64,000 nt of DNA from a virus: the IMG/VR virus record IMGVR_UViG_3300044731_001604, positions 64,001 to 128,000 of that record. The stretch is one strand, 5' to 3'. Below, piece by piece: positions 18,004 to 58,305 of this stretch (positions within the stretch are counted from its first letter, which is position 1; every line of letters starts with the position of its first letter). The translations under genes and the position numbers were made by a program. The notes under the pieces were generated by a model, which worked only from the letters and a program-made list of their open reading frames with translations, searched no databases and had not been told where the DNA came from.

Positions 18004-19734
18004 TTAGTCCTTTTTAAACTTTGGTTGCCAAGGTTTCTTAAGATCTTCCATAATTTCAGCTTTTGTCATTTTGTATGAACAAGATTCTTCGCTTTTTTCT
18101 TCTTTTTTCATCTCAGATTTAGGAAGATTCGGTTTAGGCATTGCTTTTTGTTCAGCAATTACTTTATGATGTTCCTCTTTTGCTTCATTGATGTGTTTAT
18201 TTCCTAATTTATTTGCCAATTCTCCAGTAACAAGACCACGAGGAGCTTCATTGTGATATACTTTAGTTTTATTATACGATGTTCCTAAAGTAGCTCTACT
18301 TCCAGCAGAGCTTCGGCCTTTATCAGTTGAATAATAGTATCCTTCTTTATCTACAGAAGGTTTATGAATACCTTTTTGGTGTTCAAGATTGCCAGAACTT
18401 TCTTTTAATCCAGCCTTTTCCATCTCTTCTTTTTCTTTTTCTTCATGCTCTTTAGATTCTTTAGCCTCATGTTCTTTAGACTCATCTTCTTCAGATTCAT
18501 CTTTTTCTTCTTTCATTACAGTAGGTGCAGGTTTTAATTGCATAGTAGCTGTAGGCTTAGGAATTTTAGGCTTTGGAATACTAGGAGCTGTAGGCTTAGG
18601 CATTCCCATTGGAATAGATGTTGCCTTCATCAATTCTTCAAATTGCTCTGGATTTTCTTGAGCAATTTTAAGTAATTCTTTAGCTAATTCCAATGCTGAT
18701 TTATCCGCTTTTTTCATTTCTTTCTCCATTGATTCTTCTGACTTAGGGAGGTTTGGCTTAGGCATAGCTTTTAATTCTTTGAGTTTAGAAACATGATGGC
18801 CTTTTGCCGCTTGAATATTTTTGCTTCTTACGGCAGATCCTGCATAAGATCTACCAGTGTGATCGAGTAGATGTTTTCCTGCTTTAGGGATTTCTTTAGT
18901 AGTGGCATCTGATACAGGTTTATGAACACCCTTCATATCAACATTTGGATGAGCTGCACCTTTTTCCATCTCTTCTTTTTTCATTTCAGATTTAGGAAGG
19001 TTTGGCTTAGGCATAGCTTTTAATTCTTTGAGTTTAGAAACATGGATTTCTTTTGCAACTTTTGGAGACCTTTCATACTCGTCAAAAGTAGACGGATCGT
19101 GAGCCTCTCTTGTTTTAATTCCTGCATAAGAAATTCCGTGTTGTGTTTTTCCATTTTTAATATATTGAGTGCTATAGCTTGGTTGATGTACGCCTTTTTC
19201 TTCTTTAGCCATTTCTGACTTAGGAAGGTTTGGCTTAGGCATTTGTTTTAAATCGTACATTACTTTTTTATGCGATTTAACAGACTGATCTTTTGGCAAA
19301 TCAGAATATGCACTTGGAGATCGGTGAATACCCTTATCTCTTTGTGGCCACATTTCTTCATTTCTTTTTTGGCGAGCAGAAACTTTTTGTTTTGAGGTCT
19401 TGCCTTCGTCAATGCGAGCTTTTTCCATTGCTTCTTCTTTGCCAGCTTCTTCATTTTCTGGAGAGCGCAATTCAGCTTCATCTTGCAATGTTCTTAAATG
19501 CTCAAACATTTTCTTTTGTTTTTCAGGAGTATCTAAGATAGACAAAGCGTGTTTAATACTTTCGTCTTCTTCTACAATATCATGAGCTTTATCTTCAGGA
19601 GAATTTGGAGAGTGAGGCATATCATCTTTAACCATTAGAGGTGCTGCAACATCTGAAGGAATGTTCTTTTTAGCTGTTTCTTTAACAGCTTTTAAAAGTT
19701 CTTTTGCTTTTTCTAATGCCGATTTTTCGCTCAT
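18004..19734 (-). CDS. Lys/Glu-rich repeat protein, putative internal head protein
   Basis: 4x MPKPNLPKSE modules, many MEKA/MEKG/MKKA motifs, late promoter motif 19769-19776. Confidence 0.7.
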   Translation of the reverse strand: MSEKSALEKAKELLKAVKETAKKNIPSDVAAPLMVKDDMPHSPNSPEDKAHDIVEEDESIKHALSILDTPEKQKKMFEHLRTLQDEAELRSPENEEAGKEEAMEKARIDEGKTSKQKVSARQKRNEEMWPQRDKGIHRSPSAYSDLPKDQSVKSHKKVMYDLKQMPKPNLPKSEMAKEEKGVHQPSYSTQYIKNGKTQHGISYAGIKTREAHDPSTFDEYERSPKVAKEIHVSKLKELKAMPKPNLPKSEMKKEEMEKGAAHPNVDMKGVHKPVSDATTKEIPKAGKHLLDHTGRSYAGSAVRSKNIQAAKGHHVSKLKELKAMPKPNLPKSEESMEKEMKKADKSALELAKELLKIAQENPEQFEELMKATSIPMGMPKPTAPSIPKPKIPKPTATMQLKPAPTVMKEEKDESEEDESKEHEAKESKEHEEKEKEEMEKAGLKESSGNLEHQKGIHKPSVDKEGYYYSTDKGRSSAGSRATLGTSYNKTKVYHNEAPRGLVTGELANKLGNKHINEAKEEHHKVIAEQKAMPKPNLPKSEMKKEEKSEESCSYKMTKAEIMEDLKKPWQPKFKKD

Positions 19735-19785
19735 ACAATCCTCTAAGTAATTAAAATACCCAACCTTTAGATTAGGTTAGATATT

Positions 19786-22700
19786 TTAATCCTTCTTCTT
19801 AACCGAAAGCTTCTTAATATCATTAAAGCTTAATTTGTTAGTTTTAGGAGCAAAAATGGCATCTAGTCTAGCCTTTTGCTCTTTTATGTCTGCAGCCTTA
19901 AACCGACCTTTATTTCTTCTGTGTTCTGCCTTAATGTCTTGGTAGTTTAAAGCGCTTGGAGCTTGCGGAGTTTTAAGATGTTCTGGTACCTCTTGTCCCT
20001 TAGCGTCATAAAAAGCCTTTAGATCAGCTTGGCGCTGAGTTTCTTTGGCTTGTTTTCTTTTATTCATCATATCTCTAAATGCAGAATTTGGCTTAAGAAT
20101 TTCGTTTTTCATAACATTTTCTCCTAAATTGGTCTTGGTTGACCAGGAAGTTGTGTTAGAATCTCGCCCGTCGGCATTATATATTCCGTTAGAATCCAAT
20201 TCGATCCCCGAAACTTTACTATCTTCTGCAGAGGTATCTTGTTTTTCAGCCTCTTTTTTAGATAAGCTCTCTCCTGCTTGGAGAATGTGCTTGTATAATC
20301 GTCTAAATACATTAGTACTAGTTCCAAAAGCTGTTCTTCGTTCATTCTTTTCAACATTTCCACTTGAAACTCCCTTAAACGATATTTTTATCGGTGGCAG
20401 TCCTTGGTTTTTACCTTGGCTATGAGAATGTCTTGTAATGGTTAAAACGTCTGGATTACTAGAATCTAGTGTAACACCGTCTTGACCAGAAAGCAAGGAT
20501 TTTATGTGTCTCGCACGAAGTTTTTGTACACCATTTTCTTCAGTTGGAATAAAGTGTCTATTTGGATCTTTTTTAATTGAATTTATAATACCTCTAAAAA
20601 GGGCTTGGTGGCGCTTAGGTAGGGTATTTGCAAAATGATCTATCCTATTAGTATTATTTAGGATTTCATCGTCTTTATCTGCTTTTTGTTTATCAGAATG
20701 CCACATTGTTACACCATTTGGATGTTTTGCAGCAATCCAAGGTTGTTCGGGGTGTTTTTCCCCTATAGCTCTAGGTATGGCTTTTTCTAAAGTGTACGAC
20801 TCTGGGTCATTGATAATGAAAATTATTTCAGATTTATTTATAAGTTTTTTGAAATATTTATTAGCAGCTCTTGCCCTTGCATTAATTTTAGAATCAATTG
20901 ACGTGCCTTTAACCCACGTATTTTTATTTGGGTCAAATGCAAGTTCTCCAGAATCAATCATGTCAGTTCTTTCTTTCATCTCTGGAGAAAGTAATTTTCC
21001 TGATTTAAGCTGATCTACCAACTGACCTTTTTTGTCTTCATATCTTACTGCAGCCGGCTGATCTTCTGTTCCTATGACTATTCTTTTAGGTTCATTTTCT
21101 TTAACTTTTACATTGGTTGTAAGTGGTGGCAATCCCATTCTTCTTCTTAATGGATTTTCTACTGCACGTGCTTGAACTTCACTTGGGTGTTTAAAAGACG
21201 CCGTTGGTCCTCCACCCATTTTAACAGATTCTCCAACTTCTTTATCCATCACAGTTTGATGTTGATGAGGAGTTCTTCCTTCTGGCATCTGTTCTAAGTG
21301 ACCAAACTCATGGGTAATTGCGCCAGGATTCCATTGAGATTCTAAATTTCCGCCTCTCCAATCTGGCTTGTCTGTACCCTCAATAGAGCCAACTTTTCTT
21401 TCACCTGTTTTTTGATTTATTTTACCTTTTGACGGAACAATATCTTTTTTATATCTTAGTTGCGAAAATTTCTTTTGTTGTTCGATTTGTTTTTGGCCAA
21501 ATTTAGATTTAGGATTTGGATTCCCTTGAGTGCCAAAAAGTTTCTTTCTTTGTGCTTTAATATTTTTAGAAGTTTTCTCTAAATCCTCTGATTTATTTAA
21601 AAGATCTTTGAAGTATGATTCTGATTTGCCAAATTTATCAGCAGCCACTTTGAGATTTTCAGAATTAGGTATCCAATTGCCGAAAGCCTCTGGGGTCAGA
21701 TTTTGCGCATATTCGTAAGATTTTTGATGACCTTGTTTTAAGTTTTTAATGTGCTTATCATAGTGATCATTTGGATTATCTCTAATTGTTCTGGTAAGAT
21801 AATTTTTAAAGCTTTTTCTTTTTTCAGCATTTACTAGCAAGTCTCTTGCGTGTGTAAGTAGCTCCTGGTTAAAAGATCCTCTATTTCTTTTATACCCTCT
21901 GTTTTCAACCCAGTCAGATAAAGTTTTAAGGGTGTCTGGGCTATACTGATTCAATAAATCTTTTACGACTTTTCCGTAAACATGAGAACCGTATTTTCTT
22001 TCAACTTGTCCTAATAAACCATGTAAGGCTTCGTGCTCTATTGTAGAGTCTACGGCTTGACCTCTAGCCTTAATTTGTTCTGGGGACAAATCTTTTGTCT
22101 CAACCTTCTTTTTTGATGGTTTTCTAGGTGCTGTTGGCATCTTTGGTCGTTTAGCAATGTGGTTATAGTACTCAGTAGAGCCAGGCGCGTAGTTACTTAC
22201 TTCTTTACGCCATTTATCGTAATCATCAAAAGATTTTGTTTTAGCTTCTTGGTATTTATCCGCGTTGTCTTTTATTTTTTGAGAGTACTCTTCGTCTGGA
22301 GCTTCGTATTTACTTCTAGCTTTTCCTGCAAGTGCGCCAGAGATATCGCGAGTATCTAAGGAATAATTTAATCCTAAAGTATCTCTACCAAGCCGTCTTG
22401 CTGGTGCGCCAGAAAGTCTTTTCATTTCTTTTGTTCTATTTTCTGGCTTTAGCTTTATACCTTTTTTATTTTCAAAATCTTTAATCTGTTGATCTGCTAT
22501 TTTTCTTCCAAACAATTTAACTTGTTGGGGTTCTTCTAAAAGTTGCACATTTTGATCTGGTCTTGTGTCTAATCCCATTTTAGGAAAGGTAATCCTTGGT
22601 CTAGACATTTTTTCTAGGTTATTAGACTTATTTAAAATAGCTTTTTCTAATTTCTTTTTGAAATATTTTTTAGATTCGATAGCTTTTAACTTCTTGTAAT

Positions 22701-22863
22701 AATTAGGATCTTCTAAGAGATGATCTCTAGCTATTTCTGAGGCAACTTGTTTGTTTTCGGTATGCTCTTTTTCATGGGTAGCTCCTTCGTCCAATTTCTC
22801 TTGGTCAAAGTCTTTTTTAGGAATATTGTCTGCTGCCCCACCGGGAAGTATGTCTTTAGTCAT
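19786..22863 (-). CDS. multi-domain cargo polyprotein: DUF5661-like + two HExxH zincin-like domains
   Basis: GGAAD...G..HE.EH...IARDHL.EDP.YY; HEALH (22021-22035); HEFGH (21298-21312); 3 YFK linkers. Confidence 0.7.
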   Translation of the reverse strand: MTKDILPGGAADNIPKKDFDQEKLDEGATHEKEHTENKQVASEIARDHLLEDPNYYKKLKAIESKKYFKKKLEKAILNKSNNLEKMSRPRITFPKMGLDTRPDQNVQLLEEPQQVKLFGRKIADQQIKDFENKKGIKLKPENRTKEMKRLSGAPARRLGRDTLGLNYSLDTRDISGALAGKARSKYEAPDEEYSQKIKDNADKYQEAKTKSFDDYDKWRKEVSNYAPGSTEYYNHIAKRPKMPTAPRKPSKKKVETKDLSPEQIKARGQAVDSTIEHEALHGLLGQVERKYGSHVYGKVVKDLLNQYSPDTLKTLSDWVENRGYKRNRGSFNQELLTHARDLLVNAEKRKSFKNYLTRTIRDNPNDHYDKHIKNLKQGHQKSYEYAQNLTPEAFGNWIPNSENLKVAADKFGKSESYFKDLLNKSEDLEKTSKNIKAQRKKLFGTQGNPNPKSKFGQKQIEQQKKFSQLRYKKDIVPSKGKINQKTGERKVGSIEGTDKPDWRGGNLESQWNPGAITHEFGHLEQMPEGRTPHQHQTVMDKEVGESVKMGGGPTASFKHPSEVQARAVENPLRRRMGLPPLTTNVKVKENEPKRIVIGTEDQPAAVRYEDKKGQLVDQLKSGKLLSPEMKERTDMIDSGELAFDPNKNTWVKGTSIDSKINARARAANKYFKKLINKSEIIFIINDPESYTLEKAIPRAIGEKHPEQPWIAAKHPNGVTMWHSDKQKADKDDEILNNTNRIDHFANTLPKRHQALFRGIINSIKKDPNRHFIPTEENGVQKLRARHIKSLLSGQDGVTLDSSNPDVLTITRHSHSQGKNQGLPPIKISFKGVSSGNVEKNERRTAFGTSTNVFRRLYKHILQAGESLSKKEAEKQDTSAEDSKVSGIELDSNGIYNADGRDSNTTSWSTKTNLGENVMKNEILKPNSAFRDMMNKRKQAKETQRQADLKAFYDAKGQEVPEHLKTPQAPSALNYQDIKAEHRRNKGRFKAADIKEQKARLDAIFAPKTNKLSFNDIKKLSVKKKD
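20124..20363 (-). CDS. nested out-of-frame gene (79 aa)
   Basis: GTG start with AAGGGAG RBS (20370-20376); its stop overlaps AGGAG RBS of ATG 20112. Confidence 0.55.
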   Translation of the reverse strand: MEMLKRMNEEQLLELVLMYLDDYTSTFSKQERAYLKKRLKNKIPLQKIVKFRGSNWILTEYIMPTGEILTQLPGQPRPI

Positions 22864-22922
22864 ATTAATTAGATTAGGTAGTTGTAATGTTTATAGTTTC
22901 TTTATATTCTATACCATAAAAA

Positions 22923-23858
22923 TTAATACGTTTTAATAACTTTATGGCCATTTTTAAGTTCAGCCGGATGAAATTTTAAATTAACATCTTTTGCTGAAAA
23001 AGAAGGTCCTAATTTAGAGAATTGGTCCCACATTTCTTTATCAACAGAGATGTGCGGCAGGAAGTGTGAGAACTTAGGTCCCATATCTTTTGCGTGTTCT
23101 CTAATTTGGTGAATTCTATTTGGTAATCCATAAACCAATAGTACATGGTGTGTTGCGCCATCTAATCCTTGTAACTTGTGTGGCATTAAGGTTATTTTGC
23201 TTGTGTCTATTGGCTTATGCAAATTATGATCATTTAAAATATTGTGAACTTGGTTTATATCGGCATTATTTCCAAATGCTTTAACTGTCATGTGAATTGG
23301 ATAGTTATTTTCTTGCCTAACAGATTTATTACCAAATGACACCGGATGGAAGAGAATGGTTGAATTGCTTATATCGGCAGGTTTAACGCTTTTTAATAGT
23401 AATTCATTGAATTCTGGATGTTCATGCAATTGTTTTGCTTTTTTTTCAAATTCTGCTTTTTTTATTTTAGCCATTCGACCTTCATTAAAGGCTTTTGCAT
23501 CAGGAGTTTGGTCGGGCGACGGTATGTAATCCTTGCCAGACAATTTCATTGCTGCGTTTACTAAAGAGGTTCCATGACCCTGCCTTCTGTGGTCTTCATG
23601 AACTTCTATGTTAATTGGCATAATTCCTGCTTTTTTATGAGTCACAGCAAGGAAGCCAATTTTGTTATTATTTTTATGAATTTTAACAATAAAATCATTT
23701 TGTTTTGGATCAAACTTTTTTGCTCCAAGCATAAACGGTTCTACAGTTATTTTTGTTTTTGATTTTTCAGATTTAGCGATTTCTTCGTTTATTTTTAAAT
23801 CTTTTAATTCGTTAATGTATTCTTGGGTATGTCTTTTAAAATTTCTCATTGGTGCCAC
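22923..23858 (-). CDS. GNAT acetyltransferase + 2H phosphoesterase fusion
   Basis: V.EDHRRQGHGTSL GNAT motif A; HMT and HIS 2H motifs 80 aa apart. Confidence 0.7.
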   Translation of the reverse strand: MAPMRNFKRHTQEYINELKDLKINEEIAKSEKSKTKITVEPFMLGAKKFDPKQNDFIVKIHKNNNKIGFLAVTHKKAGIMPINIEVHEDHRRQGHGTSLVNAAMKLSGKDYIPSPDQTPDAKAFNEGRMAKIKKAEFEKKAKQLHEHPEFNELLLKSVKPADISNSTILFHPVSFGNKSVRQENNYPIHMTVKAFGNNADINQVHNILNDHNLHKPIDTSKITLMPHKLQGLDGATHHVLLVYGLPNRIHQIREHAKDMGPKFSHFLPHISVDKEMWDQFSKLGPSFSAKDVNLKFHPAELKNGHKVIKTY

Positions 23859-26305
23859 TTTCCGTTGATAATTTCATTTGGCATAAGCCCAGCTTTTTGT
23901 TCTGCGTAAATTGTATTTGCTGGATTTGCTTTGTTATGTGCAGCATTTTTACCATAATTTACAACACTGTTTTGGCCCATTGTTTCTGAAGCCAAAGCTT
24001 TTTGAGCCAATGGAGAAAACATTTCTTTATGTGCCAAGTAGCTCGTGTGTTCACCCTTTGGACCAAACGTGCTATTAGTTAACCCATGGCCAAAAGCATC
24101 GTGGACAATTCTAAAGACATCGTTAGCTAGCATTGGCCTATTTTCGTGCATAAATTGAGTTTGCTGTAACAATGGGTGGTTTTTGCTTTGCTCATTAGAT
24201 CCATATCCTTGTTCTGTAGGATAATACCATAGATGATTGTTGACATGCAGATCATGTAGCATGTCCTTTGAGGTTTTGTATGGATTTTCTTGATTGGGTT
24301 GCATTTTAGAAATTTTAAGCCCATTATTAATTAAATGATTAAACTGCTTTCCAGTCTCATTAATTAGAGCGCCGTACGCTGCTTTAACGTCTGGATGTTC
24401 TGGATTATGTGGCATTGCTTCGTACGCCGCAGCTATTTTAGATCCATGTTCTGGATTTAAACTTACATTATAATTATGGCTTAATTTCATTCCGTTTAAG
24501 TTGGCATAATCTTCTGCCACATTTTTAATATGACTACTTGTTTTAATCAAATTAGATTTAATTAATTTTTTGAAATAACTTTTAACTTTCTTTTCCATTG
24601 GATAACCAACATCTAAAGAAAACCTTACCATTTTCCCATTTGGAAGTTTTATTTCTGAATAGTTATCATTTAGGTGAGACCCTATGACATGGCCAGACCC
24701 ACCTTCTGGTGGATTATAATCAGCATGCTTAGTAGTATGTTCTTTGTGGCTTCCAGACGTAGATTGTATATGAGCTTTTTGTTTATATTTATCTGCCAAT
24801 TCAGACGCATCTTTTGTTGATAAGTTGTGTACCATTACACTTGGCTCGGCATCTGTTCCAAACCATTTTCCACCGACTGGCGTATAACTATAACCCTTTT
24901 GATTTAGTTCATTTAAAAGATTGTTATGGTTTTGTTGCGACTGCTCAGGAGTCATTGTATTTGTATGGCCAGTTAATAAAGAGAAATTGCCATTTTTAAG
25001 ATATTTATCTACATCTTGTTCGTTTTGAAATGGACTAATTTCGGTTTTTTTTAATTCAGATTTTAAAACTTGCTCTTCATGTACTGGATGTGTATGATAT
25101 AATTGTACCACTTGCGTTTCTGGTCTCATCGACCATTTTACGCCATTATATCCATTCTGCTTTAAAAGTCCATGAAATAAATCCTCGTTCCATGCACCTT
25201 GATTGCTTTGTAAAACTTGTTGAGCGTAATTATTTGGATCTTTGTCATAATCATATACGTTTTCTGGCATCTTAACAGTATATTTAGATTTAGCATTTTG
25301 TGTGACTAAATCCTCTGGTTTTGAATCTTGGGTATAAAAAAATGATGATTTATTCTCTGGAACGCCTCTTTTGTATTGAGCGCCCTTGACACCAGATCCC
25401 ATTTTAAGTGGGTCTATTTGTTTTAGACCACTCTGTGAGCTATAATGAATTAAATTCGGATTATTCTGATTATGAGACGAGTCCTTAGCTAATGATTTTA
25501 AGGATTTGTATCCTTTTTCTGAAGCTGCTAATTTTTCTGTCTTATTGGTGGTTTTAAGGCCCTGACTTGCAGCCTTTTTAATATCGCTATCAGAATGTTT
25601 TTCCCAATAGCTGGCGTGTTGCCAAAGGTCCCATTTACCGCCATGGCCAACTTTATTAAATTCTTTTTCTCCAACATCATCATGTTTAACTTTGATTTTG
25701 TGCTTTGTCTTATCTTCAGTTTTTGTCGCCGTTACAACCCCAGTCTTTGGAATACTTCCAGGTAGTGCGGATTTCTCTTTTACTTTATCGCCTGCTTTAA
25801 ATGGATGAGGAGTTTTTACTTTTTTTTCTTCTGATTTAGTAATTGTAGGAGGCAGAGAATGCTCTTCTTCTTTTGGACCTTCTACAGAACCATCTGGGTC
25901 TGGTGGTCTAGAGCCACTTTTTTGCCAATCAATAAGTATATTATTGGTAGGAAACTTCATTGAATCGTGGTTATTTGGGTCTAGAAATTTATGCGACACA
26001 AATTCTTGATCTGGATCTTTTGATGCGTCAAACTTATAATCTTTTGGGCAAATTCCGTGAAAAAGAGTTACGTAAGAGTCGCCGTATTCGCCCTCATGAA
26101 CCTTATCAAGTTTAATGCCAGACAGTCCTGCCTCTTCTTCAAGTTCTCTATGTGCCGCTTCTAGTGGAGTCTCTCCGTCATTAGAATGGCCACCTGGCAA
26201 AGTCCAAGTAGATTCTTTTCTATCTAGACCGTGCATATAAAGATTTGGAGCATCTGGGTGCTGTAAAGCTATAACTGAGACTTTTTTATGATATTGATCA
26301 CTCAT
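23846..26305 (-). CDS. polyvalent cargo protein: Nudix + SH3-like + ART-like + DUF3293-like + HDxxGH domain
   Basis: Nudix box GGHSNDGETPLEAAHRELEEEAG; other domains by motif; K|S linkers between domains. Confidence 0.7.
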   Translation of the reverse strand: MSDQYHKKVSVIALQHPDAPNLYMHGLDRKESTWTLPGGHSNDGETPLEAAHRELEEEAGLSGIKLDKVHEGEYGDSYVTLFHGICPKDYKFDASKDPDQEFVSHKFLDPNNHDSMKFPTNNILIDWQKSGSRPPDPDGSVEGPKEEEHSLPPTITKSEEKKVKTPHPFKAGDKVKEKSALPGSIPKTGVVTATKTEDKTKHKIKVKHDDVGEKEFNKVGHGGKWDLWQHASYWEKHSDSDIKKAASQGLKTTNKTEKLAASEKGYKSLKSLAKDSSHNQNNPNLIHYSSQSGLKQIDPLKMGSGVKGAQYKRGVPENKSSFFYTQDSKPEDLVTQNAKSKYTVKMPENVYDYDKDPNNYAQQVLQSNQGAWNEDLFHGLLKQNGYNGVKWSMRPETQVVQLYHTHPVHEEQVLKSELKKTEISPFQNEQDVDKYLKNGNFSLLTGHTNTMTPEQSQQNHNNLLNELNQKGYSYTPVGGKWFGTDAEPSVMVHNLSTKDASELADKYKQKAHIQSTSGSHKEHTTKHADYNPPEGGSGHVIGSHLNDNYSEIKLPNGKMVRFSLDVGYPMEKKVKSYFKKLIKSNLIKTSSHIKNVAEDYANLNGMKLSHNYNVSLNPEHGSKIAAAYEAMPHNPEHPDVKAAYGALINETGKQFNHLINNGLKISKMQPNQENPYKTSKDMLHDLHVNNHLWYYPTEQGYGSNEQSKNHPLLQQTQFMHENRPMLANDVFRIVHDAFGHGLTNSTFGPKGEHTSYLAHKEMFSPLAQKALASETMGQNSVVNYGKNAAHNKANPANTIYAEQKAGLMPNEIINGKWHQ

Positions 26306-26847
26306 ATCTTGCTACCCTTTGATAAATTATCCTTAGAAGATAGAATTTGTAAATTCCACGGAACGTGTAATCCACATCCTATATGATCACCATTTTCGTT
26401 TTTAAGAGTGAGTGGATATATATGGTCAACATGAAAAACAGTATCAGATTTACTTAATTCATTGGCAGTTTTATAATACCCTTTAATATGTTTTTTTTGA
26501 ACTTTATTTAGCCATATAGGGGTGGCTATTTTAAATCTTTTCTTTCTTATTCTAACATCTACTCGGAACTGTCCTCTTCTTGAGGCGTTTGCCTTTTCTC
26601 TTTGTTTCTTAGCCCACTCTGGATTTTTTTCTTTATACAGCCTATTGTTTTTTAAAATACTATTATAATTTTTTTCTCTGTATAATTTAGAAAAAGCTTT
26701 TCTTATTTCTATAGATTTCTCTCTATTCTTAATAACCCATTTTAGTCTAGAAATATTTCTATTTTCTGCAAAGCATGCGTCACAGAACATTTTGTGTGTT
26801 CCTTTAGACTTTGAAAATTTAAAACATTTATTACACAGTATAGTCAT
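26302..26847 (-). CDS. HNH homing endonuclease
   Basis: HVDHIYPL...GLHVPWNLQIL...DN..KG. Confidence 0.85.
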   Translation of the reverse strand: MTILCNKCFKFSKSKGTHKMFCDACFAENRNISRLKWVIKNREKSIEIRKAFSKLYREKNYNSILKNNRLYKEKNPEWAKKQREKANASRRGQFRVDVRIRKKRFKIATPIWLNKVQKKHIKGYYKTANELSKSDTVFHVDHIYPLTLKNENGDHIGCGLHVPWNLQILSSKDNLSKGSKI

Positions 26848-26849: not shown

Positions 26850-27809
26850 CTAATCTTTTTCTGTTTTCCAGCCTTGTTTTTGAGCAAGGCTTTGGTATGC
26901 TTCTGGTGTTCTAGGTCCATCAATTATTTTTACGCCGCCAGTAACTTTTCCTAGTTTAGGAGCAGCATATCTAATAAATGTGGCTTCAACTACACATTCA
27001 AGTTGGGCCATACAAGTAAAAATTAATTCAATACCATCAAATGACGGATTAACATCAACCGAACCTACAGAAAAAGTACTAAGCTCTAATCCGCGTCTCT
27101 CTAAGTATGCTTCTTTGTATCTTAAAAATATATATTGTATTATTTGTCTAAGCCATAAAACTTGTTGAGTGTCACTTTGTGCGTGAAGTCCTATAGAAAA
27201 AGTTTCATGAAGGTAAGTTACCCCTTGCTCTAAATTCCACAAAGATAATGCAGGTACGATATAGCAATTAGTGAAATCGTCATTTGTATTATCTGCTATT
27301 TTAAAAGTTGTATCGTCTATAACTTTTTCTATTACATATGCTTTTGATGATTTTTTAGAAACCAAGAATTGGCCTGGAGAAACAGCAAACGTAGTTAATC
27401 CAGTTGGCAATGAAACTTCGCCAATTGATTTGTTATATGCTTTAGGAGTGAATTGATCAATTACATTAACAATTTGTCTATTAATTGACTGTGGCTCAAT
27501 CTCTTCAGTATAAATTTGATCATCTGCCAATGAGGTTCTATCTAATGCTTCTCTAGATGATGTTCTAACTACTGTGATACATGGCATTTTAGGGGTGTCG
27601 ACTCTATTATTGAAATAGACTGGAATTGATGTTTCCATAAACCAAGATTTAGCAGCATATACTTCAGCATAGCCAGAATCTTTTGATGTTAGCGGATCGT
27701 TTGCAAGACCTGCAAAAATATCCTCTAATATCCAGCTGTTAGACCTTAAATCGGCTAATGCTGCCTCTATTGCTGATTTTACTGCTAGATCTGAAGCTAA
27801 AATGCCCAT
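26850..27809 (-). CDS. putative tail terminator/completion protein
   Basis: position in neck cluster, PCITV motif; late promoter motif 27833-27840. Confidence 0.5.
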   Translation of the reverse strand: MGILASDLAVKSAIEAALADLRSNSWILEDIFAGLANDPLTSKDSGYAEVYAAKSWFMETSIPVYFNNRVDTPKMPCITVVRTSSREALDRTSLADDQIYTEEIEPQSINRQIVNVIDQFTPKAYNKSIGEVSLPTGLTTFAVSPGQFLVSKKSSKAYVIEKVIDDTTFKIADNTNDDFTNCYIVPALSLWNLEQGVTYLHETFSIGLHAQSDTQQVLWLRQIIQYIFLRYKEAYLERRGLELSTFSVGSVDVNPSFDGIELIFTCMAQLECVVEATFIRYAAPKLGKVTGGVKIIDGPRTPEAYQSLAQKQGWKTEKD

Positions 27810-27872
27810 TGTTTACGTCTCCACCTAAACTAAGATTAAGATTTTATATAACACTTATATTATAGCAGGTTT

Positions 27873-28769
27873 TTAGCTTCTTGACAATTCGTTTTCTATT
27901 TCTTTTACCATTTTTTCAAATCGTTGATTTGCAAAATCATATGCATCATCAAAGAGCTTAGCGCCGTCTACTTTAGGGTACATCCACCTAAAGCCCCTGT
28001 GCTTCTCCGAAATAACTCTAAATACCACCGTTTCTTTTACTGGGTTGCCTTCTTTGTTCAATTTTTGAGTTATAACCAAACCTTTTAGTTTGTATATACC
28101 AGAATGTTGACCTAAGCCTGTTGCCATAGCTTCTTCAAATCCTCTTGGTTTGGAATATAAGCTAGGTGCTTGCTGTTGAGTAAATTTAGGTTTAATGTTT
28201 AATTTATGTATTACACCAATTTTTGGGTTTCCATTATCATCGAGTACTGTTTCATGTAAATCAATATTAGATTTTTCCAAGGCTTTTTTAACAACTTCAG
28301 CAAGTCCAGGACTTGCTCCTGGCGCTGTTTTTTTACCTCTAGTTTGAACAAATGGTATAACTGCGTATTTACTACCATCTTTTGCAGTTTTAGCCGATTT
28401 TCCAGTGAGAAGCCAATCCATAAATCTTGATTCTGCTCCTGTTTCTAACCATTGCGCTTTTGGATCTAAATCTACTACCCACAATCCTCTGGTTATCTCT
28501 GTCCATACTAAAAATTTTGTACGTCTATCTATCATTGGGTGTGGCGTACCTTTTACGGTTGCGCCTTTTCCAAATTTTCCGAGTCCTAGGTACATTTGTC
28601 TTTTTACTTCATCACGTGCAAAATATTCATTTGCCGCATTTAGAATAAATTCATGTGTTTGAAGTGAGATATTTTTAATTCCTTCTACTACTCTATTTTG
28701 AATTAAATCTCTAGTAGTTTTTAGCTTTTCTGCTAATTCTGATATATCTACTTGTATTCTAAAGCCCAT
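27873..28769 (-). CDS. putative neck/tail-completion protein
   Basis: KDG.KY..IPF and FRVIS...WMYP motifs typical of myophage neck proteins. Confidence 0.55.
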   Translation of the reverse strand: MGFRIQVDISELAEKLKTTRDLIQNRVVEGIKNISLQTHEFILNAANEYFARDEVKRQMYLGLGKFGKGATVKGTPHPMIDRRTKFLVWTEITRGLWVVDLDPKAQWLETGAESRFMDWLLTGKSAKTAKDGSKYAVIPFVQTRGKKTAPGASPGLAEVVKKALEKSNIDLHETVLDDNGNPKIGVIHKLNIKPKFTQQQAPSLYSKPRGFEEAMATGLGQHSGIYKLKGLVITQKLNKEGNPVKETVVFRVISEKHRGFRWMYPKVDGAKLFDDAYDFANQRFEKMVKEIENELSRS

Positions 28770-28770
28770 G

Positions 28771-29940: not shown

Positions 29941-29954
29941 TTTACACCTCGATA

Positions 29955-44778: not shown

Positions 44779-44882
44779 AAAAGTCTCCTTATTAAAAGTT
44801 CGTAGACATCTTCCACCTGTAATTCGGCTACATCGCCTGTCTACAAAAATAGAATATCAAAGTTTTAATAAAAAAACAAGTA

Positions 44883-45563: not shown

Positions 45564-45645
45564 ATTTACTCCTGTATTAATATTGTCTCATACTTAACAG
45601 TTGCCGTCAAGAAAAAAAAATAATTGCTGTTTTAAAACAACAAGA

Positions 45646-48592: not shown

Positions 48593-49000
48593 TCAATTTT
48601 TCAATTTGAGGGAGCCAACACACAAACCTTCTGGTTGTGACCCAAAGATCACATAGGATGGCGCATTGCTTGATTTATTTAACGAAGCTTCAACAGGTAA
48701 TAGGCCCCTTCTTTTTGCCCATTCCATCGCTTTTTGTTTTACTTTTTCGTCTGTGTTTTTTCCGAAATCTAATCTTACTGATTTGTTTTCGTAAACACTT
48801 GCAAGTATTTCATTTTTCTTAAGAGAATTACGCTCTTCCAAGCTTTTTGCGACATTTGATACGGCAACTTTGGTTCTTTTAACACCAAATTTTTTATACC
48901 AAGACTGTAAGCGATACGCCAACTTAGGTGGAAGTTTTTTCTCTAAACTTTCCTCTGTTAGCATTTCAGTTAATTCTACCGATAACTCATCAATTGTCAT
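48593..49000 (-). CDS. hypothetical head-associated protein
   Basis: LEKK, VAKS, LKKN, LNKS motifs. Confidence 0.55.
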   Translation of the reverse strand: MTIDELSVELTEMLTEESLEKKLPPKLAYRLQSWYKKFGVKRTKVAVSNVAKSLEERNSLKKNEILASVYENKSVRLDFGKNTDEKVKQKAMEWAKRRGLLPVEASLNKSSNAPSYVIFGSQPEGLCVGSLKLKN

Positions 49001-55000: not shown

Positions 55001-55362
55001 TCATTAATATATTTATTGGCTCTATCTTCAAGAACTTTTGTGTCAACATTTGGGTGTACGCTTGCCCCTTTTGACCTGTAAGCTGTATCGTTCATAGCAA
55101 TATGGTTAACTACATCTGACGGTGTATTTGGATTATTAAGCATGCCATCAACAATTGAGTTGATCTCATGTTCTCCTACTTTTGGAGCAATATGGTTATA
55201 TAATTTAGAGATAGACTCTTTTGGCGCATTCGCATGTTCTGCAATATCAGACATAAAAGCATGATCGTATATGGTTTTATCCTCATGCGGAGTATTAATA
55301 TAATTTTCAACATGAGAATTTAGAACATCTGATGGCGTATCTGTAGTTAATTCTTTGCTCAT
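49012..55362 (-). CDS. 2116-aa polyvalent-type protein: LRV/HEAT-like repeats + C-terminal EExQSD domain
   Basis: repeats of (H/N)-P/K-N-x-x-x-x-x-L; WIIEEFQSD motif. Confidence 0.65.
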   Translation of the reverse strand: MSKELTTDTPSDVLNSHVENYINTPHEDKTIYDHAFMSDIAEHANAPKESISKLYNHIAPKVGEHEINSIVDGMLNNPNTPSDVVNHIAMNDTAYRSKGASVHPNVDTKVLEDRANKYINETYGSRPPVKNLTPEFYENLLNNRKNHTEDEPNAKTDNEDEIVRLGYATTKHHTPDSIERGVKIFEKGPIYGFNAPTNPSSTIDSDDLVSDFIGNNDLSKDQLNRLHNVYESSSKDYPNTISSIVSHKNADPTLLGKIVKTYNSEESDHNKRSLLRHALGHSNLPNEVLSSVVEKPELDWHEKEALNLNENLSPDQIDKLVSNGHKEFLGHKNTNPDSIKKAWDLSSKDTDAARKMLGYKNLPPDVLKEIVNHKSKNIAIDALKHKNVNKDVVDTALKRKALDVYEAAKQHPLAGHDIYTNEFKQGKRNLHDMWKDSKAMEAWDKMSPEDKHLSLRTMHEKLKGTDLEEISKKSKQSLSDVVQNKLDLIKSPELSQDERDSNTDDLLQMFSESHPKNMSIYSGNDPRSGYYSSQEHKLDLKQSVKDLISNGNKKAEDFALQHPGLTKDLLDSKSRTSASFLDKLYDADKANKENNTQIYDQYGMPDKYSSDAWKLIHNDYSSMGTVKKIVKDYPGVLDTHDWGSKNNENQTWLSDKFEDMSDSEKEKNINDLLEISNGGAAPLIIATKNTPEKVKNELWDKLTPPEKHDLVTGGKYYFNPHDLNNHEENKKILSGHYNDLLPEDMKPRHILGNLEKSVISGMSPSNKSHVSILKDTIKNSEDSKSNSIISSLDRDFKKHKNILNIVPEDKVESIGTTAAIEHLLENEHSGADKLQGVVSNLKDFIKSHADKIENPQEKQDYITKTWKDILYSRASTRVANKAGKVFDDLVDSSGSEQGNELNRILLKDGLLSEEKKAELESKKSFTEKLDSIEHSKKMDYILNSVKGKSLSQPDFEAAVNQFQPDMYLYNHKFNNDHEEVSNDMLNFFDHVADDDKAFYITKLFDTDLDSNTKKILPNLINPLFEKINNLQNWSNEGLNALKDRFFKKVYESLGPVKQVKDLAKKMVDSTISNKNGDLLYDMIDKKILPSTYNKHLINMLQTSPESFGSGTLLSGATSIGHDDSNQKLAETFVNTLDKEAQKSIDQHKDYDKQKNLFTRLSQAHTEDQSKLQSITNFLKKHTLSEDPITSEYANKSLAKMLYSKIPKEEKTSIFKNLPNTPEIANNIEYGNLDTNNPDILENITGHKLRKFLSDSENFGKLTKQNIDVVTNRLFLDNEINESDRITAFGDLSTNPVVSPESLAKLGRSIPHNVYSAQIGVIFSLSKSGIKEKLNSLSTALHQLVESKIDELDKLMVPQDEGSPYFGSEYLSESHLSEIKKHLTPLAKFVGGTFFDESSTDVKSKLQTYSKVYESLDKHLGTILKNSKPEDVKKNAEIASEVLRDVTYSSLDISNEDLNHISNIISMSKQGGYDISLSYPVDIRDYKKLINRAKDAQLSDWQIHFEKHPEFNFCLDGVQELNSNVLGAYSFEKAYEADPQSAVHSAVKMIGRMDDNTLDKYGKGVLSKVVNVFTDPDVTPPDLSAPFKALGDKVSYSEFQDLVQDLDHAQKYNTQAIALQYGVGGQDLADSYVKERGVDEVYASSLFIDKKHSNEIVNNWEKDLKSTEIVDKLLRNYRTDVSSLDKISNILIENHKSGYNNLNKQESSSLAMVLLKHPNLSKESVERLYEETSNDKQVVFLPSRQYHPAFANPTWGGYLMRKFAPALPSEFKKTISEEKLVKSVSVHDKDVDVLQNTMNKVPADGIMWADFKKMNPELENNKVIKNIFMSKNNKPVVPEDFVNAMQSAEIQDKAKEYHMTYSIFDLKLQQHANKPSLVFQLNNSEKSEKEMSQDPKLWALYQMVLKETNGIRESSIGLHPTTPQMVAWSRVDTSSNKDGWIIEEFQSDFAQKFRKNIRTILANSPNGLEIDGHKLSPKEIKDYIKKIDAQLGEWSKAGMNTVIENAKAQGVKTLYMHGAGIRSHMSGGSMVNGQLREYNKDFINPRITDIYDGTAQKYGFTKVDYTDYPHKSVDTLNETRKKGLPTHCWALSLTDEPVQAKEKTAKVKKPRKPKLKE

Positions 55363-56024
55363 ACTCTACTCCCCTTTTTAAGATTATCAGCGGCCCACAG
55401 CGGTTGTAAATTAGTATAATGACACAATTTAATCATATCTTCTGGTGTTTTTGCCGAGCTTAATGGAACAATGTGATCTACATGCCAACCATTACTTGAC
55501 CAATTTTCCCAAGTCATACCTGGTTGAAATTTTGACTCTAAATAATTTTTTAAAAAATCACTAGTACATCCAATATCTTTTATTGCTGATCCAATTTTTT
55601 TATATCCAGTTGCCTTTAAAAAATTATTAAGTCTTGCCCTTAGAGTTTTTGCTAATCTATACATAATATCTTTTTCTTTTCTAATTCTATGTATCTCTCT
55701 GCGTCTTTCAAGAACTTTTGGATGATTCTGCTTTAATTTTCTAAGTATTGGATTTTCTCTATCTCTCTTTTTTTTATTTTTTTCTCTAGACAGTTTAGGA
55801 TTTTCCCAATACCTATCTCTGTATCTTTTTCTTTCTGACTCTAAATTTTTAAGTCTCCAAATTCTTGAATATTCTCTAGCTTTTTCTCTGTTATTTGAAT
55901 TTTTCAAATTTTGTCTTAAATTAATACACTTTTTACACTGAGAAACGCGGCCACTTTTTTTATGTTTGTCCTTAGAAAACTCACTTTCATTTTTTTCAAT
56001 TTTACACTTGGTACAAGTCTTCAT
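55359..56024 (-). CDS. HNH homing endonuclease
   Basis: N-terminal CxxC...CxxC; GMTWEN...WHVDHIVPLS...HYTNLQPLWA.DN..KG. Confidence 0.88.
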   Translation of the reverse strand: MKTCTKCKIEKNESEFSKDKHKKSGRVSQCKKCINLRQNLKNSNNREKAREYSRIWRLKNLESERKRYRDRYWENPKLSREKNKKKRDRENPILRKLKQNHPKVLERRREIHRIRKEKDIMYRLAKTLRARLNNFLKATGYKKIGSAIKDIGCTSDFLKNYLESKFQPGMTWENWSSNGWHVDHIVPLSSAKTPEDMIKLCHYTNLQPLWAADNLKKGSRV

Positions 56025-56638
56025 TGGTCCAACCTAGATGGACTGGACCCATACTTCATTTTATATAAAATTCGTTTTACGTAGTTAGGAGATTCAGCGC
56101 CGCGATAATCCCCTGACTCAATTTCATAGTCATATTCTGGTGTGCTTAATTTCCCAGCTTCAATCGCTTGTTTTTGTTCTTTTCTAATGTTATCTAAAGC
56201 AGCTTTGGATATAAAGTTTTTTTCTTGTTTTCTTTCTGTAGGTTTAATAGACGGCATAATTGGGTAAGGTTGCGTTCCATCAGTTTTTCTAGTTACAGAT
56301 ATTTCTCCACGCTTAATTGCTGCAAATAACGCATCTTTTTCTTCTGGATCTAACATTTTACCATTTAAGATACAAGTGTGCCCGTCAGAAGATATCTCAG
56401 CTACGTCACCGTTGCTTAAAATATATCTAAACATTGTTATGGAAGATTTGGTAGGTTCTTCCAAAGAAAGGTGGGACGATGCAGATACTTTTCTAGAAAG
56501 CTCTTTAAAAGAATTATTAGCCATTTTTGGCACAAAGCCATTAGAATTATCAACTATAAATTCAATCTGGTCTCCCTCAACTCTAATTTCAGCTAATGGT
56601 ACTTTAGATTGCGTGGATTTTACTACATAGATTTTCAT
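56021..56638 (-). CDS. hypothetical late protein
   Basis: 205 aa, coupled to protease gene. Confidence 0.6.
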   Translation of the reverse strand: MKIYVVKSTQSKVPLAEIRVEGDQIEFIVDNSNGFVPKMANNSFKELSRKVSASSHLSLEEPTKSSITMFRYILSNGDVAEISSDGHTCILNGKMLDPEEKDALFAAIKRGEISVTRKTDGTQPYPIMPSIKPTERKQEKNFISKAALDNIRKEQKQAIEAGKLSTPEYDYEIESGDYRGAESPNYVKRILYKMKYGSSPSRLDQ

Positions 56639-58305
56639 TTGTCATCTCCTGGCAATAAAAGACTTTTTTGATTAATTGTGTCACTTACAGCTTGGGCTCT
56701 GTCCCATGCGTTTTGCATAGTGATCGGTCTTTTAGAGTCTGCCTGATATGATTTTAACACACCTAGAGACTTTTGTATAGTTTTTTTATCAAAACCATGA
56801 TGTTTCATGCGTAAAGCCAATACTTTAGGGTCAACGCTTTGAATCCATTTAGATGCTTCTGGGTGTATTGCTGAACTATCATTTTCTAAATAATCTGGCT
56901 TCATATACACATGGCTAAAAGCATAATCATTATCAATATTTAAAAGATGCCCGTCTGGATGAATTAAAACATTACCAAGGTGTCTGTCGCTATTTTGAAG
57001 AACGTGGTCTAATATCGCTAATTTATGCAGACTTCCATCTTCCGTAGCTTTTTTATGCGCATTGTCCCAAGCTTCTTGGGACTCTAGTGGAGTTTTAGAC
57101 CCCTTGATATACTCCACTGCTTGAGTTGAAAGCCCACCATGTACTTCTGGGTGCTTAATGGCTGCAGTTGTAGGAACATGTTTTTCCATGCCAAATACAT
57201 TTCTTGCAATATCAGAATAGTGTGAGGCATTGTGATTTTGAGATTCCTGATTTTCGCCCATTGATAAACTGCTTGGGCCTTTTAAAAATACATCTTGCCC
57301 ATTGTCGTTTCTTAAAATATGTAATTGTTTATCTGGACGGTATGAATCATGTCCAGGTGAGAATTTTTGCTTATTATCAAAATACAAACCTTCAACCAAG
57401 TTTTTTTGATCATGATTTGCATTAATATGAGAATGAGTTTGATTAATTCTAGTTAACTTAGGCTCGCCTTTTTTTAGAGCAAGGTCTTCAGCAACATCAG
57501 CAAAGTGTTCTATATAAGTATCAGATATTTCAGGAAGAGCCGCCTTAAGAACTTCTTTAAGTGGTCTTTTTCTGTCCCAATCTCTAATTGCCGCTTTGAT
57601 TTTATTCTTATTGGTTTTATTAACTATTTGTTCTCTAACTAAAGCTGCGCCGCCTGTAAGTTGTCCTGGTGCGACATTACCCATTCCGGCTTCTAGAGTT
57701 TTATTAAGCTCGTCAATAGCCTTTTTCATATCAGTAAAGTCTATTGCATCATCAGATAGAACGATTGAGTCGATTGTTACTGTTGAAATTGATGAGCTTT
57801 CAAATTTTTTAACGATCTCTTCTGATTCTTTGTCAGTCATAACATCAATCCAGCATTGCTTATTACATGGAGTTAATGTGATCGCTACCTTTTTCATCAT
57901 AGCTCTTTTAAGGATATTGCCATCTCGCTCAAGAGTCACGCCTTCGATTGAGGCTCCAACTTGGATTGGTTCTTTTTTATTATGAAAGTAACGAATCATT
58001 GCTGCAATTGCCAAAGCTCCATGGTGTTCTTCTTCATCAAAAAGCTCAAGTGCCCCATAGATAAACGGAACTTTTACTTGATCCCAGAATTTACGTTGAC
58101 GATCAGTTTCACAATCGCCCTTTTTTAAAATTTTTTTTGCATATTTAAATACGCCAATTGCTGCAACTTCAGGAGAGTCGTTTTTGTGTTCAAAATTGGC
58201 AAACACTTGCCCTTTTTCAACAAGAGATATGTCTACGTTTTCAATTAATAGCGATTCGCCACTAGAATCAATAGCTTGTGTCGCAATAGGCATGTCTATT
58301 ATCAT
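56635..58305 (-). CDS. prohead protease (HK97/herpes-like fold) fused to MCP-like arm and kinase domain
   Basis: DSSGE, NFEH, GASIEG, VAITLTPCN; C-terminal LDHVLQNSDRHLGN...IDNDYAF. Confidence 0.85.
   Translation of the reverse strand: MIIDMPIATQAIDSSGESLLIENVDISLVEKGQVFANFEHKNDSPEVAAIGVFKYAKKILKKGDCETDRQRKFWDQVKVPFIYGALELFDEEEHHGALAIAAMIRYFHNKKEPIQVGASIEGVTLERDGNILKRAMMKKVAITLTPCNKQCWIDVMTDKESEEIVKKFESSSISTVTIDSIVLSDDAIDFTDMKKAIDELNKTLEAGMGNVAPGQLTGGAALVREQIVNKTNKNKIKAAIRDWDRKRPLKEVLKAALPEISDTYIEHFADVAEDLALKKGEPKLTRINQTHSHINANHDQKNLVEGLYFDNKQKFSPGHDSYRPDKQLHILRNDNGQDVFLKGPSSLSMGENQESQNHNASHYSDIARNVFGMEKHVPTTAAIKHPEVHGGLSTQAVEYIKGSKTPLESQEAWDNAHKKATEDGSLHKLAILDHVLQNSDRHLGNVLIHPDGHLLNIDNDYAFSHVYMKPDYLENDSSAIHPEASKWIQSVDPKVLALRMKHHGFDKKTIQKSLGVLKSYQADSKRPITMQNAWDRAQAVSDTINQKSLLLPGDDK

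Follow-up and report, generated by a model that had tools for sequence, protein, structure and literature searches.

A prohead-protease-type motif at the module joints of late multidomain proteins in an Mx1-like myophage: candidate capsid-loaded polyproteins

Are the large, lysine-rich proteins encoded among the late genes of a tailed phage polyproteins that enter the capsid and are cut apart there by the enzyme that matures the head? The question is raised by a 64,000-nucleotide stretch of viral DNA (the window; bases 64001-128000 of the 157,572-bp IMG/VR record IMGVR_UViG_3300044731_001604, ~35% G+C), in which an earlier note had seen the motif [LMIV]-x-K|[S/A/T] (the bar marks the scissile bond) in head proteins and at apparent domain boundaries of late genes, and had proposed that the prohead protease releases effectors delivered with the DNA. 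The phage is an Mx1-like myophage of 157.6 kb: among annotated genomes it stands closest to Myxococcus phage Mx1, whose major capsid protein (MCP) is 55% identical and whose head, neck, and sheath genes have a like order; metagenomic relatives number in the hundreds, many on contigs of 150-170 kb. Every motif instance quoted in the earlier note was found in the gene named. The motif is a real, order-specific signal that is confined to the head proteins and a subset of the lysine-rich late multidomain proteins; in the latter, it marks the joints of modules that are shuffled between genes in the relatives. The preferred reading, in which we infer capsid entry, the cutting, and the cutting enzyme, is that the late multidomain proteins are capsid-loaded polyproteins cut into effectors, with a probability of about 0.6.

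The gene map was built from Pfam, PHROGs, and tblastn (Table 1), and two forms of the motif were counted in the predicted proteins: a loose 4-mer, [LMIV]xK[SAT], with the expectation taken from per-protein shuffles, and a sharper 5-mer, [LMIV]xK[SAT][ED], in which the acid preference at P2' was learnt outside this genome, on the C-terminal extensions found in 134 homologues of the protease (377 sites vs 220.7 expected, with Glu at P2' in 98 of the 377). The head set comprises the MCP, scaffold, portal, MuF-like protein, and protease, and the cargo set the ten proteins picked in the earlier note. Raw counts of the loose motif say little, since chance alone would place about 5 per 1000 residues in the window proteins. 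Relative to expectation, the 4-mer occurs 26 times in the head proteins (7.3 expected, z 7.2), 53 times in the cargo set (33.4 expected, z 3.6), and 143 times in the 120 other proteins of the genome (126.5 expected). Specifically, it is in excess in the portal (9 vs 2.0), scaffold (5 vs 0.56), MCP (4 vs 1.26), and protease (6 vs 2.5) and, among the cargo, in the 576-aa repetitive protein (12 vs 3.4), the GNAT-like protein (4 vs 1.3), and the 819-aa Nudix protein (7 vs 3.1). The 5-mer occurs 9 times in the head proteins (1.04 expected) and 17 times in the cargo list (3.22 expected), or 11 times (2.61 expected) when the internally repetitive 576-aa protein, which holds 6 (0.58 expected), is left aside; the remaining 174 open reading frames (ORFs) hold 22 (18.2 expected).

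The signal depends on the order of the residues. Shuffles confined to windows of 10, 20, and 40 aa leave the excess unaltered, and, when 72 orderings of the five residue classes are counted in the head and cargo proteins, h-x-K-s-e and e-h-x-K-s rank highest with 26 occurrences each (median 6), neither being prominent in the rest of the genome. A motif-free tripeptide count finds KSE the most over-represented in head and cargo proteins together (18 vs 4.5) and in the cargo alone (10 vs 2.7), and outside the top over-represented tripeptides of the rest of the genome. Sites are often in tandem, at most 8 aa apart (head 4 vs 0.11, cargo 6 vs 0.78), and a site lies within the first 32 aa of 7 of the 15 head/cargo proteins and of 19 of the 174 others (p 0.0013), an excess that fits leader removal. 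Naive tripeptide enrichment across whole homologue sets was discarded because conserved domain residues swamped the signal; the test worked only when limited to joint flanks with adequate expected counts.

Two further ORFs bear the motif. An 83-aa ORF between the MuF-like and protease genes (58587-58838 (-)) contains MSK|S, VVK|S, and ILK|SD (3 vs 0.43 expected) and may encode a small head-internal protein. Outside the window, a 232-aa ORF with 16% Lys (C1:151556-152254 (+)) holds two 5-mer sites (0.14 expected) and is the only clear 5-mer outlier beyond the head and cargo genes.

In the head proteins, both the enzyme and the cut position are well anchored. Removal of a 13-aa MCP leader is predicted at LVK13|T14 (nt 47120-47137): among 120 MCP relatives the leader varies in length and sequence and ends at an invariant L-x-K-[T/A]-L-E-A-G, and of the two LVK|T instances in the window MCP only the second is conserved. 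The cut position was anchored on PDB chains. In a PDB sequence search, the site aligns with LNK|ALEAG of SPO1 gp6.1 and with VVK24|S25 (FQTG) of the Twort-like phi812-type MCP; the deposited 439-aa chain of the latter (9row_B) has S25 as its first residue by alignment coordinates, right after the Lys, and the cut is therefore placed after K13 of the window MCP by homology. The maturation of Twort-like MCPs between Lys and Ser, which the earlier note took as established, agrees with this solved chain, which begins directly after VVK; none of the papers within reach of a literature search reported K|S cleavage directly for an SPO1- or Twort-like phage. MCP residues 306-407 form an inserted beta-rich domain that matches phrog_19622 (annotated esterase/lipase, 4.9e-11) and aligns weakly with SPO1 gp6.1; it is probably of decoration type, not an enzyme.

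The other head proteins carry sites at their ends or throughout. The scaffold contains LAK|A, LSK|S, MEK|SE, ITK|A, and VAK|SE, and its counterparts hold 5 sites in Mx1 (four with a P2' acid), 6 in the metagenomic relative L002, and 11 in SPO1 (gp3.3). In the portal, LKK|T, LKK|AE, and IVK50|S lie in the first 50 aa and MQK|TE and LDK632|S in the C-tail. Among 112 portal relatives, the site at reference position 50 is kept in 74 and that at 632 in 86, and sites number 2.56 per 100 aa at the N-terminus, 1.36 in the C-tail, and 0.33 in the core; the N-terminal region varies in length and sequence, yet in 74 it ends in G-x-[IL]-[LV]-K-[ST]. The C-terminal tail of the MuF-like protein holds VHK|SEE and LIK|AE (5-mer 2 vs 0.10 expected) and is missing from the Mx1 orthologue. 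Mx1, which is lysine-poor overall, retains the head sites, and in SPO1 the protease, scaffold, portal (two sites at its N-terminus), and MCP bear the same motif. The homologous protease, the MCP site, and the SPO1 sites identify this half of the pattern as maturation of the Herelleviridae type, which the earlier note had recognised correctly and which is not new.

Two observations concern these proteins in the relatives. The scaffold-like protein of Mx1 (L001 18798-19670) has 9.3% Lys vs 1.0% Arg and the other structural proteins of that phage have more Arg than Lys, a composition consistent with selection for lysine-specific sites. Inteins (Intein_splicing, LAGLIDADG_3) are found in the portal relatives P0367, P0437, P0439, and P0444, and also in a neck-region gene and a ribonucleotide reductase gene of relatives (L004 4926-6908, 15912-18917); the window portal has no intein.

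The gene of the protease lies between the portal and scaffold genes, and its product combines an assemblin-fold protease (residues 1-170), a linker, a copy of the MCP N-terminal arm, and a PI3/4-kinase/HipA-like domain (residues 351-533; 56707-57255 (-), Pfam PI3_PI4_kinase 5e-11). The AlphaFold2 (AF2) model has a predicted local distance difference test score (pLDDT) of 82, and above 88 in residues 1-165. The top Foldseek matches of the model are herpesvirus assemblins (prob 0.99-0.7), and T4 gp21 (5jbl) matches it with a modest template modelling (TM) score of 0.51 by target and a root-mean-square deviation of 4.3 over 161 columns. H40 and S119 are invariant among 46 aligned homologues and, on this conservation rather than on superposition, would be the catalytic pair. 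The protease is 27% identical to the SPO1 gp3.2 head maturation protease, tblastn matches it to SPO1 gp3.2 and 18 other Bacillus/Exiguobacterium phage proteases (E 1e-7 to 2e-6), and it matches phrog_1028 at 2.4e-6. The N-terminal domain is most likely a prohead serine protease of the assemblin/T4 gp21 type, with predicted proteolytic activity. An exhaustive search gathered 805 homologous clusters (50% identity) of 184-1953 aa; a related-locus search of viral contigs with the protease sequence alone gave no relatives, and a PDB profile search with its alignment gave insignificant kinase matches only.

Most members of this family carry a copy of the MCP N-arm, starting with L-x-K-[T/A], behind the catalytic domain. 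The domains that follow it differ between members: a PI3/4-kinase/HipA-like one recurs, and some members have GGDEF, ParB_N, or DUF6321 instead or in addition. Of 150 representatives of the family, 73 match the strict pattern L-x-K-[T/A]-[LIM]-[E/T]-A-G, and many others show it recognisably. The copy in the window protein (residues 193-224, MKKA..LNK|TLEAG..NVAP..L.GG.AL) aligns with MCP residues 4-35; of the sites in the protein, which include MKK|A, LNK|T, and LKK|G, LNK202|T is the predicted self-cleavage site, with L200 and K202 conserved at 90% or more. We count this family, with its kinase, GGDEF, ParB_N, and DUF6321 fusions, as support for the polyprotein reading. The phage has two paralogous PI3/4-kinase/HipA-like domains, one fused to the protease and one free among the neck genes, and Mx1 holds the same pair.

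The late multidomain genes lie on one strand, nearly gap-free, between conserved neck genes and the sheath gene, as do their counterparts in Mx1 and in the metagenomic relatives L004 and L005. To judge by their encoded domains, the products are polyvalent proteins as defined by Iyer et al. 2017 (PMC5512222) and fit the class of effector-bearing phage proteins to which the earlier note had referred them: they have at least two unrelated effector-type domains, a late-gene location, and mosaic architectures among orthologues. In the 819-aa protein, a Nudix domain (residues 5-135, nearest to RppH/NudC types by Foldseek) is followed by a linker with ITK157|SE, a domain at 281-417, a DUF3293 region, and a domain at 590-819 (phrog_3170 from residue 588), and joints lie at VLK|SELKK|TE (nt 25040-25069) and YFKKLIK|SNLIK|T (nt 24536-24577). 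The AF2 model, from an alignment of 29 homologues, has three confident domains (5-135, 281-417, and 590-819); all 7 sites lie outside them, and the pairs 415/420 and 583/588 fall exactly at domain edges, the alignment informing mainly the C-terminal module, so that low pLDDT in 139-280 and 418-589 may partly reflect its shallowness. The 1025-aa protein is composed of DUF5661 (22-65), an HExxH module (about 80-392), a second one (about 431-677), and a C-terminal part, with joints at YFKKKLEK|AILNK|S, FGK|SESYFKDLLNK|SEDLEK|T, and YFKKLINK|SE; its modules match four different L004 and L005 proteins, and the block ends fall at the joints. The GNAT-like protein has an N-terminal IAK29|SE, the GNAT-like domain at 54-106, a joint from IKK134|AE to LLK156|S, and a C-terminal half with HxT/HxS pairs. 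This half is a possible 2H phosphoesterase, an assignment at motif level because no Pfam match was found for it at E<=5.

Smaller or simpler proteins follow the same layout. The 576-aa protein opens with a double site, LEK|AKELLK|A, and has its four repeat copies at nt 19213-19242, 18985-19014, 18736-18765, and 18112-18141; its predicted products are small basic peptides, and the L005 orthologue retains PNLPK|SE. The 150-aa protein has a conserved site, IKK73|SEE (nt 33108-33122), in the same alignment column in Mx1, L004, and L005. The 526-aa protein has its joint at nt 30243-30284, and the 587-aa kinase-like protein has an N-terminal LIK29|SE. The genome holds five copies of a longer form of the joint, Y-F-[K/R]-x-(x)-L-x-K-[S/A], all of them within three late multidomain proteins. 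On the whole, the consensus falls at sensible product positions in the 576-aa, GNAT-like, 819-aa, and 150-aa proteins and, at the joints only, in the 1025-aa protein, and does not in 28771-29940, 33329-34378, 48593-49000, and the 2116-aa giant protein.

The domain content claimed in the earlier note stands in part. Nudix, GNAT (borderline), and PI3/4-kinase/HipA-like domains are supported by Pfam/PHROG, as are DUF3293 and DUF5661. The 2H phosphoesterase and zincin assignments correspond to short motifs, HxT/HxS and HExxH (twice in the 1025-aa protein, with no Pfam/PHROG match even at E<=5). A relaxed Pfam search of the window (E<=5) detected no 2H, zincin, ART, muramidase, or mCpol domain; mCpol and ART-PolyVal are present in homologues from relatives.

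The relatives show that the joints are also the borders at which modules are exchanged. The 86 homologues of the 819-aa protein each cover 11-46% of it, most about a quarter, and pair the shared module with NUDIX, GNAT, DUF5661, PF18760, PF18182 (mCpol), PF18857, and others (we take PF18760 and PF18857 to be ART-PolyVal and LPD38); each module of the protein is found alone within other architectures. In L005, its DUF3293 region lies in a different protein, and the first HExxH module of the 1025-aa protein lies behind the K|SE site of the orthologue of the 150-aa gene, as its C-part; in L004, the C-terminal module of the 819-aa protein is nearly stand-alone. Across 85 homologues, whose phylogenetic relatedness means that counts over them are not independent events, the 4-mer lies within 30 aa of 46% of module ends vs 15% of random windows, and K[SA][ED] at 32% vs 8%; reversed and permuted motifs and R[SA][ED] are at or below background at module ends. 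The density of K[SA][ED] per 100 aa is 0.28 outside modules and 0.05 inside (5.6x), and KSE is the top tripeptide of the 40-residue joint flanks (31 vs 3.0). In the window proteins, with homology blocks defined against Mx1 (L001), L002, L004, and L005, a site lies within 30 aa of 20 of the 35 internal block ends (7.7 expected). Sites at domain boundaries, as the earlier note had described them, are therefore found for these block ends and for the 819-aa protein, and are wanting in the 587-aa kinase-like protein, whose block ends do not coincide with sites. The enrichment itself recurs in Mx1 (portal, scaffold, the NUDIX protein, and neighbouring proteins; not terminase) and in L002, L004, and L005 (several polyvalent proteins and the scaffold; not sheath, tube, ribonucleotide reductase, or neck proteins).

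The following course of events would account for these data. An assemblin-fold serine protease of the Herelleviridae type would recognise [L/I/M/V/F]-x-K|[S/A/T], in many cases with E/D as the next residue, and cut behind the Lys. In the procapsid, it would strip the MCP of its 13-aa leader, break up the scaffold, shorten the portal at its ends and the MuF-like protein at its tail, and detach from the kinase-bearing C-terminal part of its own chain. Several lysine-rich late multidomain proteins, whose genes lie between those of the neck and the sheath, would have acquired this site at their joints; they carry Nudix, GNAT, DUF3293, DUF5661, HExxH, and kinase-like modules, and the repetitive basic protein belongs with them. 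With a protease-type site at their joints, these proteins would act as polyproteins: taken up into the procapsid as it assembles, they would be split into single modules at maturation, remain in the head, and leave it together with the DNA when the next cell is infected, and the products would then act on the host, putatively against its defences. Since each module has its own flanking sites, modules could move between carrier genes as cassettes. For the Mx1-like clade as a whole, which is large (805 protease clusters) and for the most part uncultured, the fuller statement, that its polyvalent proteins are true virion polyproteins, cut at K|S-E joints into single enzymes and small basic peptides by a cargo-fused, arm-copy-bearing maturation protease and delivered with the DNA, their sites doubling as recombination-tolerant cassette borders, is tentative, and we hold it slightly short of an even chance; protease sites serving as cassette borders would explain the rapid diversification of the effector arrays.

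Several observations weigh against the polyprotein reading. The cargo list was picked with the motif already in view and hence does not form a blind grouping; neither the genome-wide scan nor the replication in other genomes draws on it. The enrichment over composition that the earlier note called for holds for the head and cargo proteins as groups and for several lysine-rich proteins, and half of its cargo list stands at expectation by per-protein shuffles: the 4-mer is at chance level overall in the 1025-aa protein (6 vs 4.4), shows no excess beyond the single joint of the 526-aa protein (4 vs 3.1), and is not in excess in the 587-aa protein (2 vs 2.5) or in 28771-29940, 33329-34378, and 48593-49000. 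The giant protein has 7 (9.5 expected) and zero 5-mer sites. A crude hydrophobicity proxy for linkers around the sites shows no difference (0.261 vs 0.262), a test that is uninformative probably because about half of the loose-motif matches are due to chance. The relatedness of the homologues, the position of the protease's own site inside a moderate-confidence AF2 helix, the presence of rival proteases for the joints (the ClpP-like protein and the HExxH modules), and the Mx1 genome paper, which holds no protein-level data, belong here as well.

The rival proteases give rise to an unlikely alternative that nevertheless has to be weighed, namely that the prohead-protease site operates only in the classical head proteins, and that the joints of the polyvalent proteins, maybe not capsid cargo at all, stay uncut or are cut otherwise, whether by a host protease, by the ClpP-like protein, or by the HExxH modules, and perhaps not until the proteins have been injected. 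Iyer et al. 2017 (PMC5512222) proposed that polyvalent proteins are processed by metallopeptidase domains embedded in them, two HExxH motifs lie in the 1025-aa protein, and the ClpP-like gene, with its strong PHROG 'head maturation protease' matches, stands in the late operon. It is conserved in L002; its weak homologue in Mx1 lies far from the head genes, and because that homologue exists the phyletic pattern leaves the ClpP-like protein as an enzyme candidate. Conversely, the joints share their order-specific core (hydrophobic-x-K-S/A-acid) with the conserved portal and scaffold sites, K is not replaceable by R at the joints, the polyvalent genes lie inside the structural operon, and the protease family is itself fused to such cargo; these points argue for the prohead protease.

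That the motif is instead a non-proteolytic docking or capsid-targeting peptide, for example an amphipathic one, that binds the scaffold, portal, or shell interior is quite improbable. It would suit the frequent tandem sites with heptad-like spacing, such as LVKTLEGLVKTLE, the helix that AF2 places over the protease's copy, and the length of that MCP-arm copy, which at 30 aa exceeds the need of a protease site. Nonetheless, in the solved Twort-like capsid the mature MCP does begin at the homologous position, sites at the ends of variable leaders and between modules have the layout of cleavage sites, and a minimal K-S-E core with strict K is more in keeping with recognition by an active-site pocket than with a docking helix. 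Chance, or an effect of a Lys/Glu-rich composition, might be suspected from the high expectation of the loose motif and from the listed proteins that do not exceed it. As the cause of the pattern it is ruled out by the global and local shuffles and the 72 permuted arrangements, and the rest-of-genome control and the replication in Mx1, with its K-poor proteome, and in metagenomic relatives also speak against it, which leaves it a very faint prospect.

Among known systems, the closest is that of the Herelleviridae. SPO1 has a homologous protease (gp3.2), its MCP (gp6.1) and that of Twort-like phi812 are homologous to the window MCP, and an L/V-x-K|S/A site likewise precedes L-E-A-G there; in SPO1, the scaffold (gp3.3) is site-dense and the portal has N-terminal sites, as here. 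SPO1 gp3.2 also has an MCP-arm copy behind its protease domain (PLDK|SLEAG…GG). In contrast, it is a stand-alone protein of 256 aa, whereas the window protease is fused to a kinase-like domain and relatives carry up to 1,700 aa of additional domains. To our knowledge, site-flanked polyvalent proteins have not been described from Herelleviridae, where no search for them was made. Sites of the T4/phiKZ type have Glu at P1 (L/I-x-E; A-x-E), whereas P1 is Lys here. The likeness to T4, phiKZ, and SPN3US lies in the assemblin-fold protease, in a short consensus that marks its substrates, and, putatively here, in the packaging of non-shell proteins that it processes. In those phages, the prohead protease (T4 gp21, phiKZ gp175, SPN3US gp245) processes proteins that are packaged in the head and ejected, IPI-III and Alt in T4, and nearly all cuts in SPN3US take off N-terminal propeptides (PMC10052503, PMC9026906). 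Unlike these propeptide cuts, the sites described here separate successive enzyme modules of one polypeptide.

Polyvalent proteins were predicted by Iyer, Burroughs, Anand, de Souza, and Aravind in 2017 to be packaged and proteolytically released (PMC5512222). The window proteins resemble them in having many unrelated effector-type domains per polypeptide, in being encoded by late virion genes, and in their rapid domain shuffling. That study gives no cleavage motif and favours embedded zincin peptidases, and the assemblin-like peptidases that it reports in a few polyvalent proteins are always C-terminal, with a processing role that was guessed (PMC5512222). Here, in contrast, the assemblin domain is N-terminal and belongs to the phage's own prohead protease, and the joints bear the capsid-maturation site. 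With the herpesvirus precursors pUL26/UL80a, the protease fusion shares an N-terminal assemblin, a release site, and a C-terminal part that would stay in the procapsid. The herpesvirus C-terminal part is a scaffold, not an enzyme, and herpesvirus protease sites are Ala|Ser; we know of no MCP-arm copy in the herpesvirus protease-scaffold precursor.

The features are collected in Table 1. The minus strand carries nearly every gene from 14.5 kb to 64 kb. The giant protein has no match in Pfam, PHROGs, PDB sequences, or the ESM Atlas; its counterpart in L002 (2062 aa) has the same position and zero 5-mer sites, and Mx1 has no gene of such size there. Besides its assemblin-fold prohead protease, the phage has the ClpP-like gene, which PHROGs labels 'head maturation protease'. 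HNH/endonuclease VII-like genes (phrog_1035) are present amid the head genes (55359-56024 (-)) and just upstream of the Nudix polyvalent gene (26302-26847 (-)), and a GIY-YIG/NUMOD gene occupies the equivalent place in L005; these inserted nuclease genes suggest homing endonucleases that may help to move cassettes.

Table 1. Positions, in window coordinates, of the head, late, and neighbouring features
Feature	Position	Strand	Basis or detail
Terminase	62899 onward		gene map
Portal protein, 680 aa	59795..61837	(-)	Pfam Phage_portal
MuF/gp7-like head morphogenesis protein, 292 aa	58886..59764	(-)	phrog_4728 head morphogenesis, 1e-4
Prohead protease fusion, 556 aa	56635..58305	(-)	AF2, Foldseek, phrog_1028, SPO1 gp3.2 homology
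MCP N-arm mimic within protease protein, residues 193-224	57634..57729	(-)	aligns with MCP residues 4-35
Giant protein, 2116 aa	49012..55362	(-)	between protease and scaffold genes
Scaffold-like acidic protein, 275 aa	47164..47991	(-)	position and composition only
MCP, 463 aa	45776..47167	(-)	55% identity to Mx1 MCP
Block of small and nucleotide-metabolism genes	about 38700-45600		
ClpP-like protease, 265 aa	37868..38665	(-)	Pfam CLP_protease 1.2e-33; phrog_94 head maturation protease 6e-31
Mx1-conserved neck genes interleaved with K-rich variable genes	26850-37834		
Second PI3/4-kinase-like protein, 587 aa	34380..36143	(-)	Pfam PI3_PI4_kinase 2.1e-9
Small protein, 150 aa	32880..33332	(-)	70-aa N-domain conserved, site, variable C-part
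Late protein, 526 aa	29955..31535	(-)	one YFRKKLNK|SSISK|S joint
Block of K-rich multidomain genes	18004-26305		
Polyvalent protein, 819 aa	23846..26305	(-)	Pfam NUDIX 1.9e-11, DUF3293 6.9e-8
GNAT-like domain protein	22923..23858	(-)	Pfam Acetyltransf_1, Acetyltransf_7 at cut-off
Polyvalent protein, 1025 aa	19786..22863	(-)	Pfam DUF5661 1.2e-11
Lysine-rich (17% K) repetitive protein, 576 aa	18004..19734	(-)	four MPKPNLPK|SE copies
Sheath	14984-17719		

The new part of these findings is the set of polyvalent proteins, with Nudix, GNAT, DUF3293, DUF5661, and kinase modules, that bear the motif at the joints of shuffled modules. The polyprotein reading unites two known ideas, the protease-processed ejection proteins of T4, phiKZ, and SPN3US and the polyvalent proteins, which are widespread in phages and conjugative elements and whose packaging and release have been at issue since their definition in 2017. 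It supplies a prediction at the sequence level, with exact scissile bonds, product sizes, and the responsible enzyme, and, as the clade has one cultivable member, Myxococcus phage Mx1, this prediction is directly testable. If it is true, the T4/phiKZ principle of protease-processed ejection proteins would extend to a lysine-specific protease of the Herelleviridae type, a tailed phage would employ a polyprotein strategy, and flanking K|S-E sites would offer a simple rule by which packaged effectors and their module borders could be recognised in metagenomic phage genomes.

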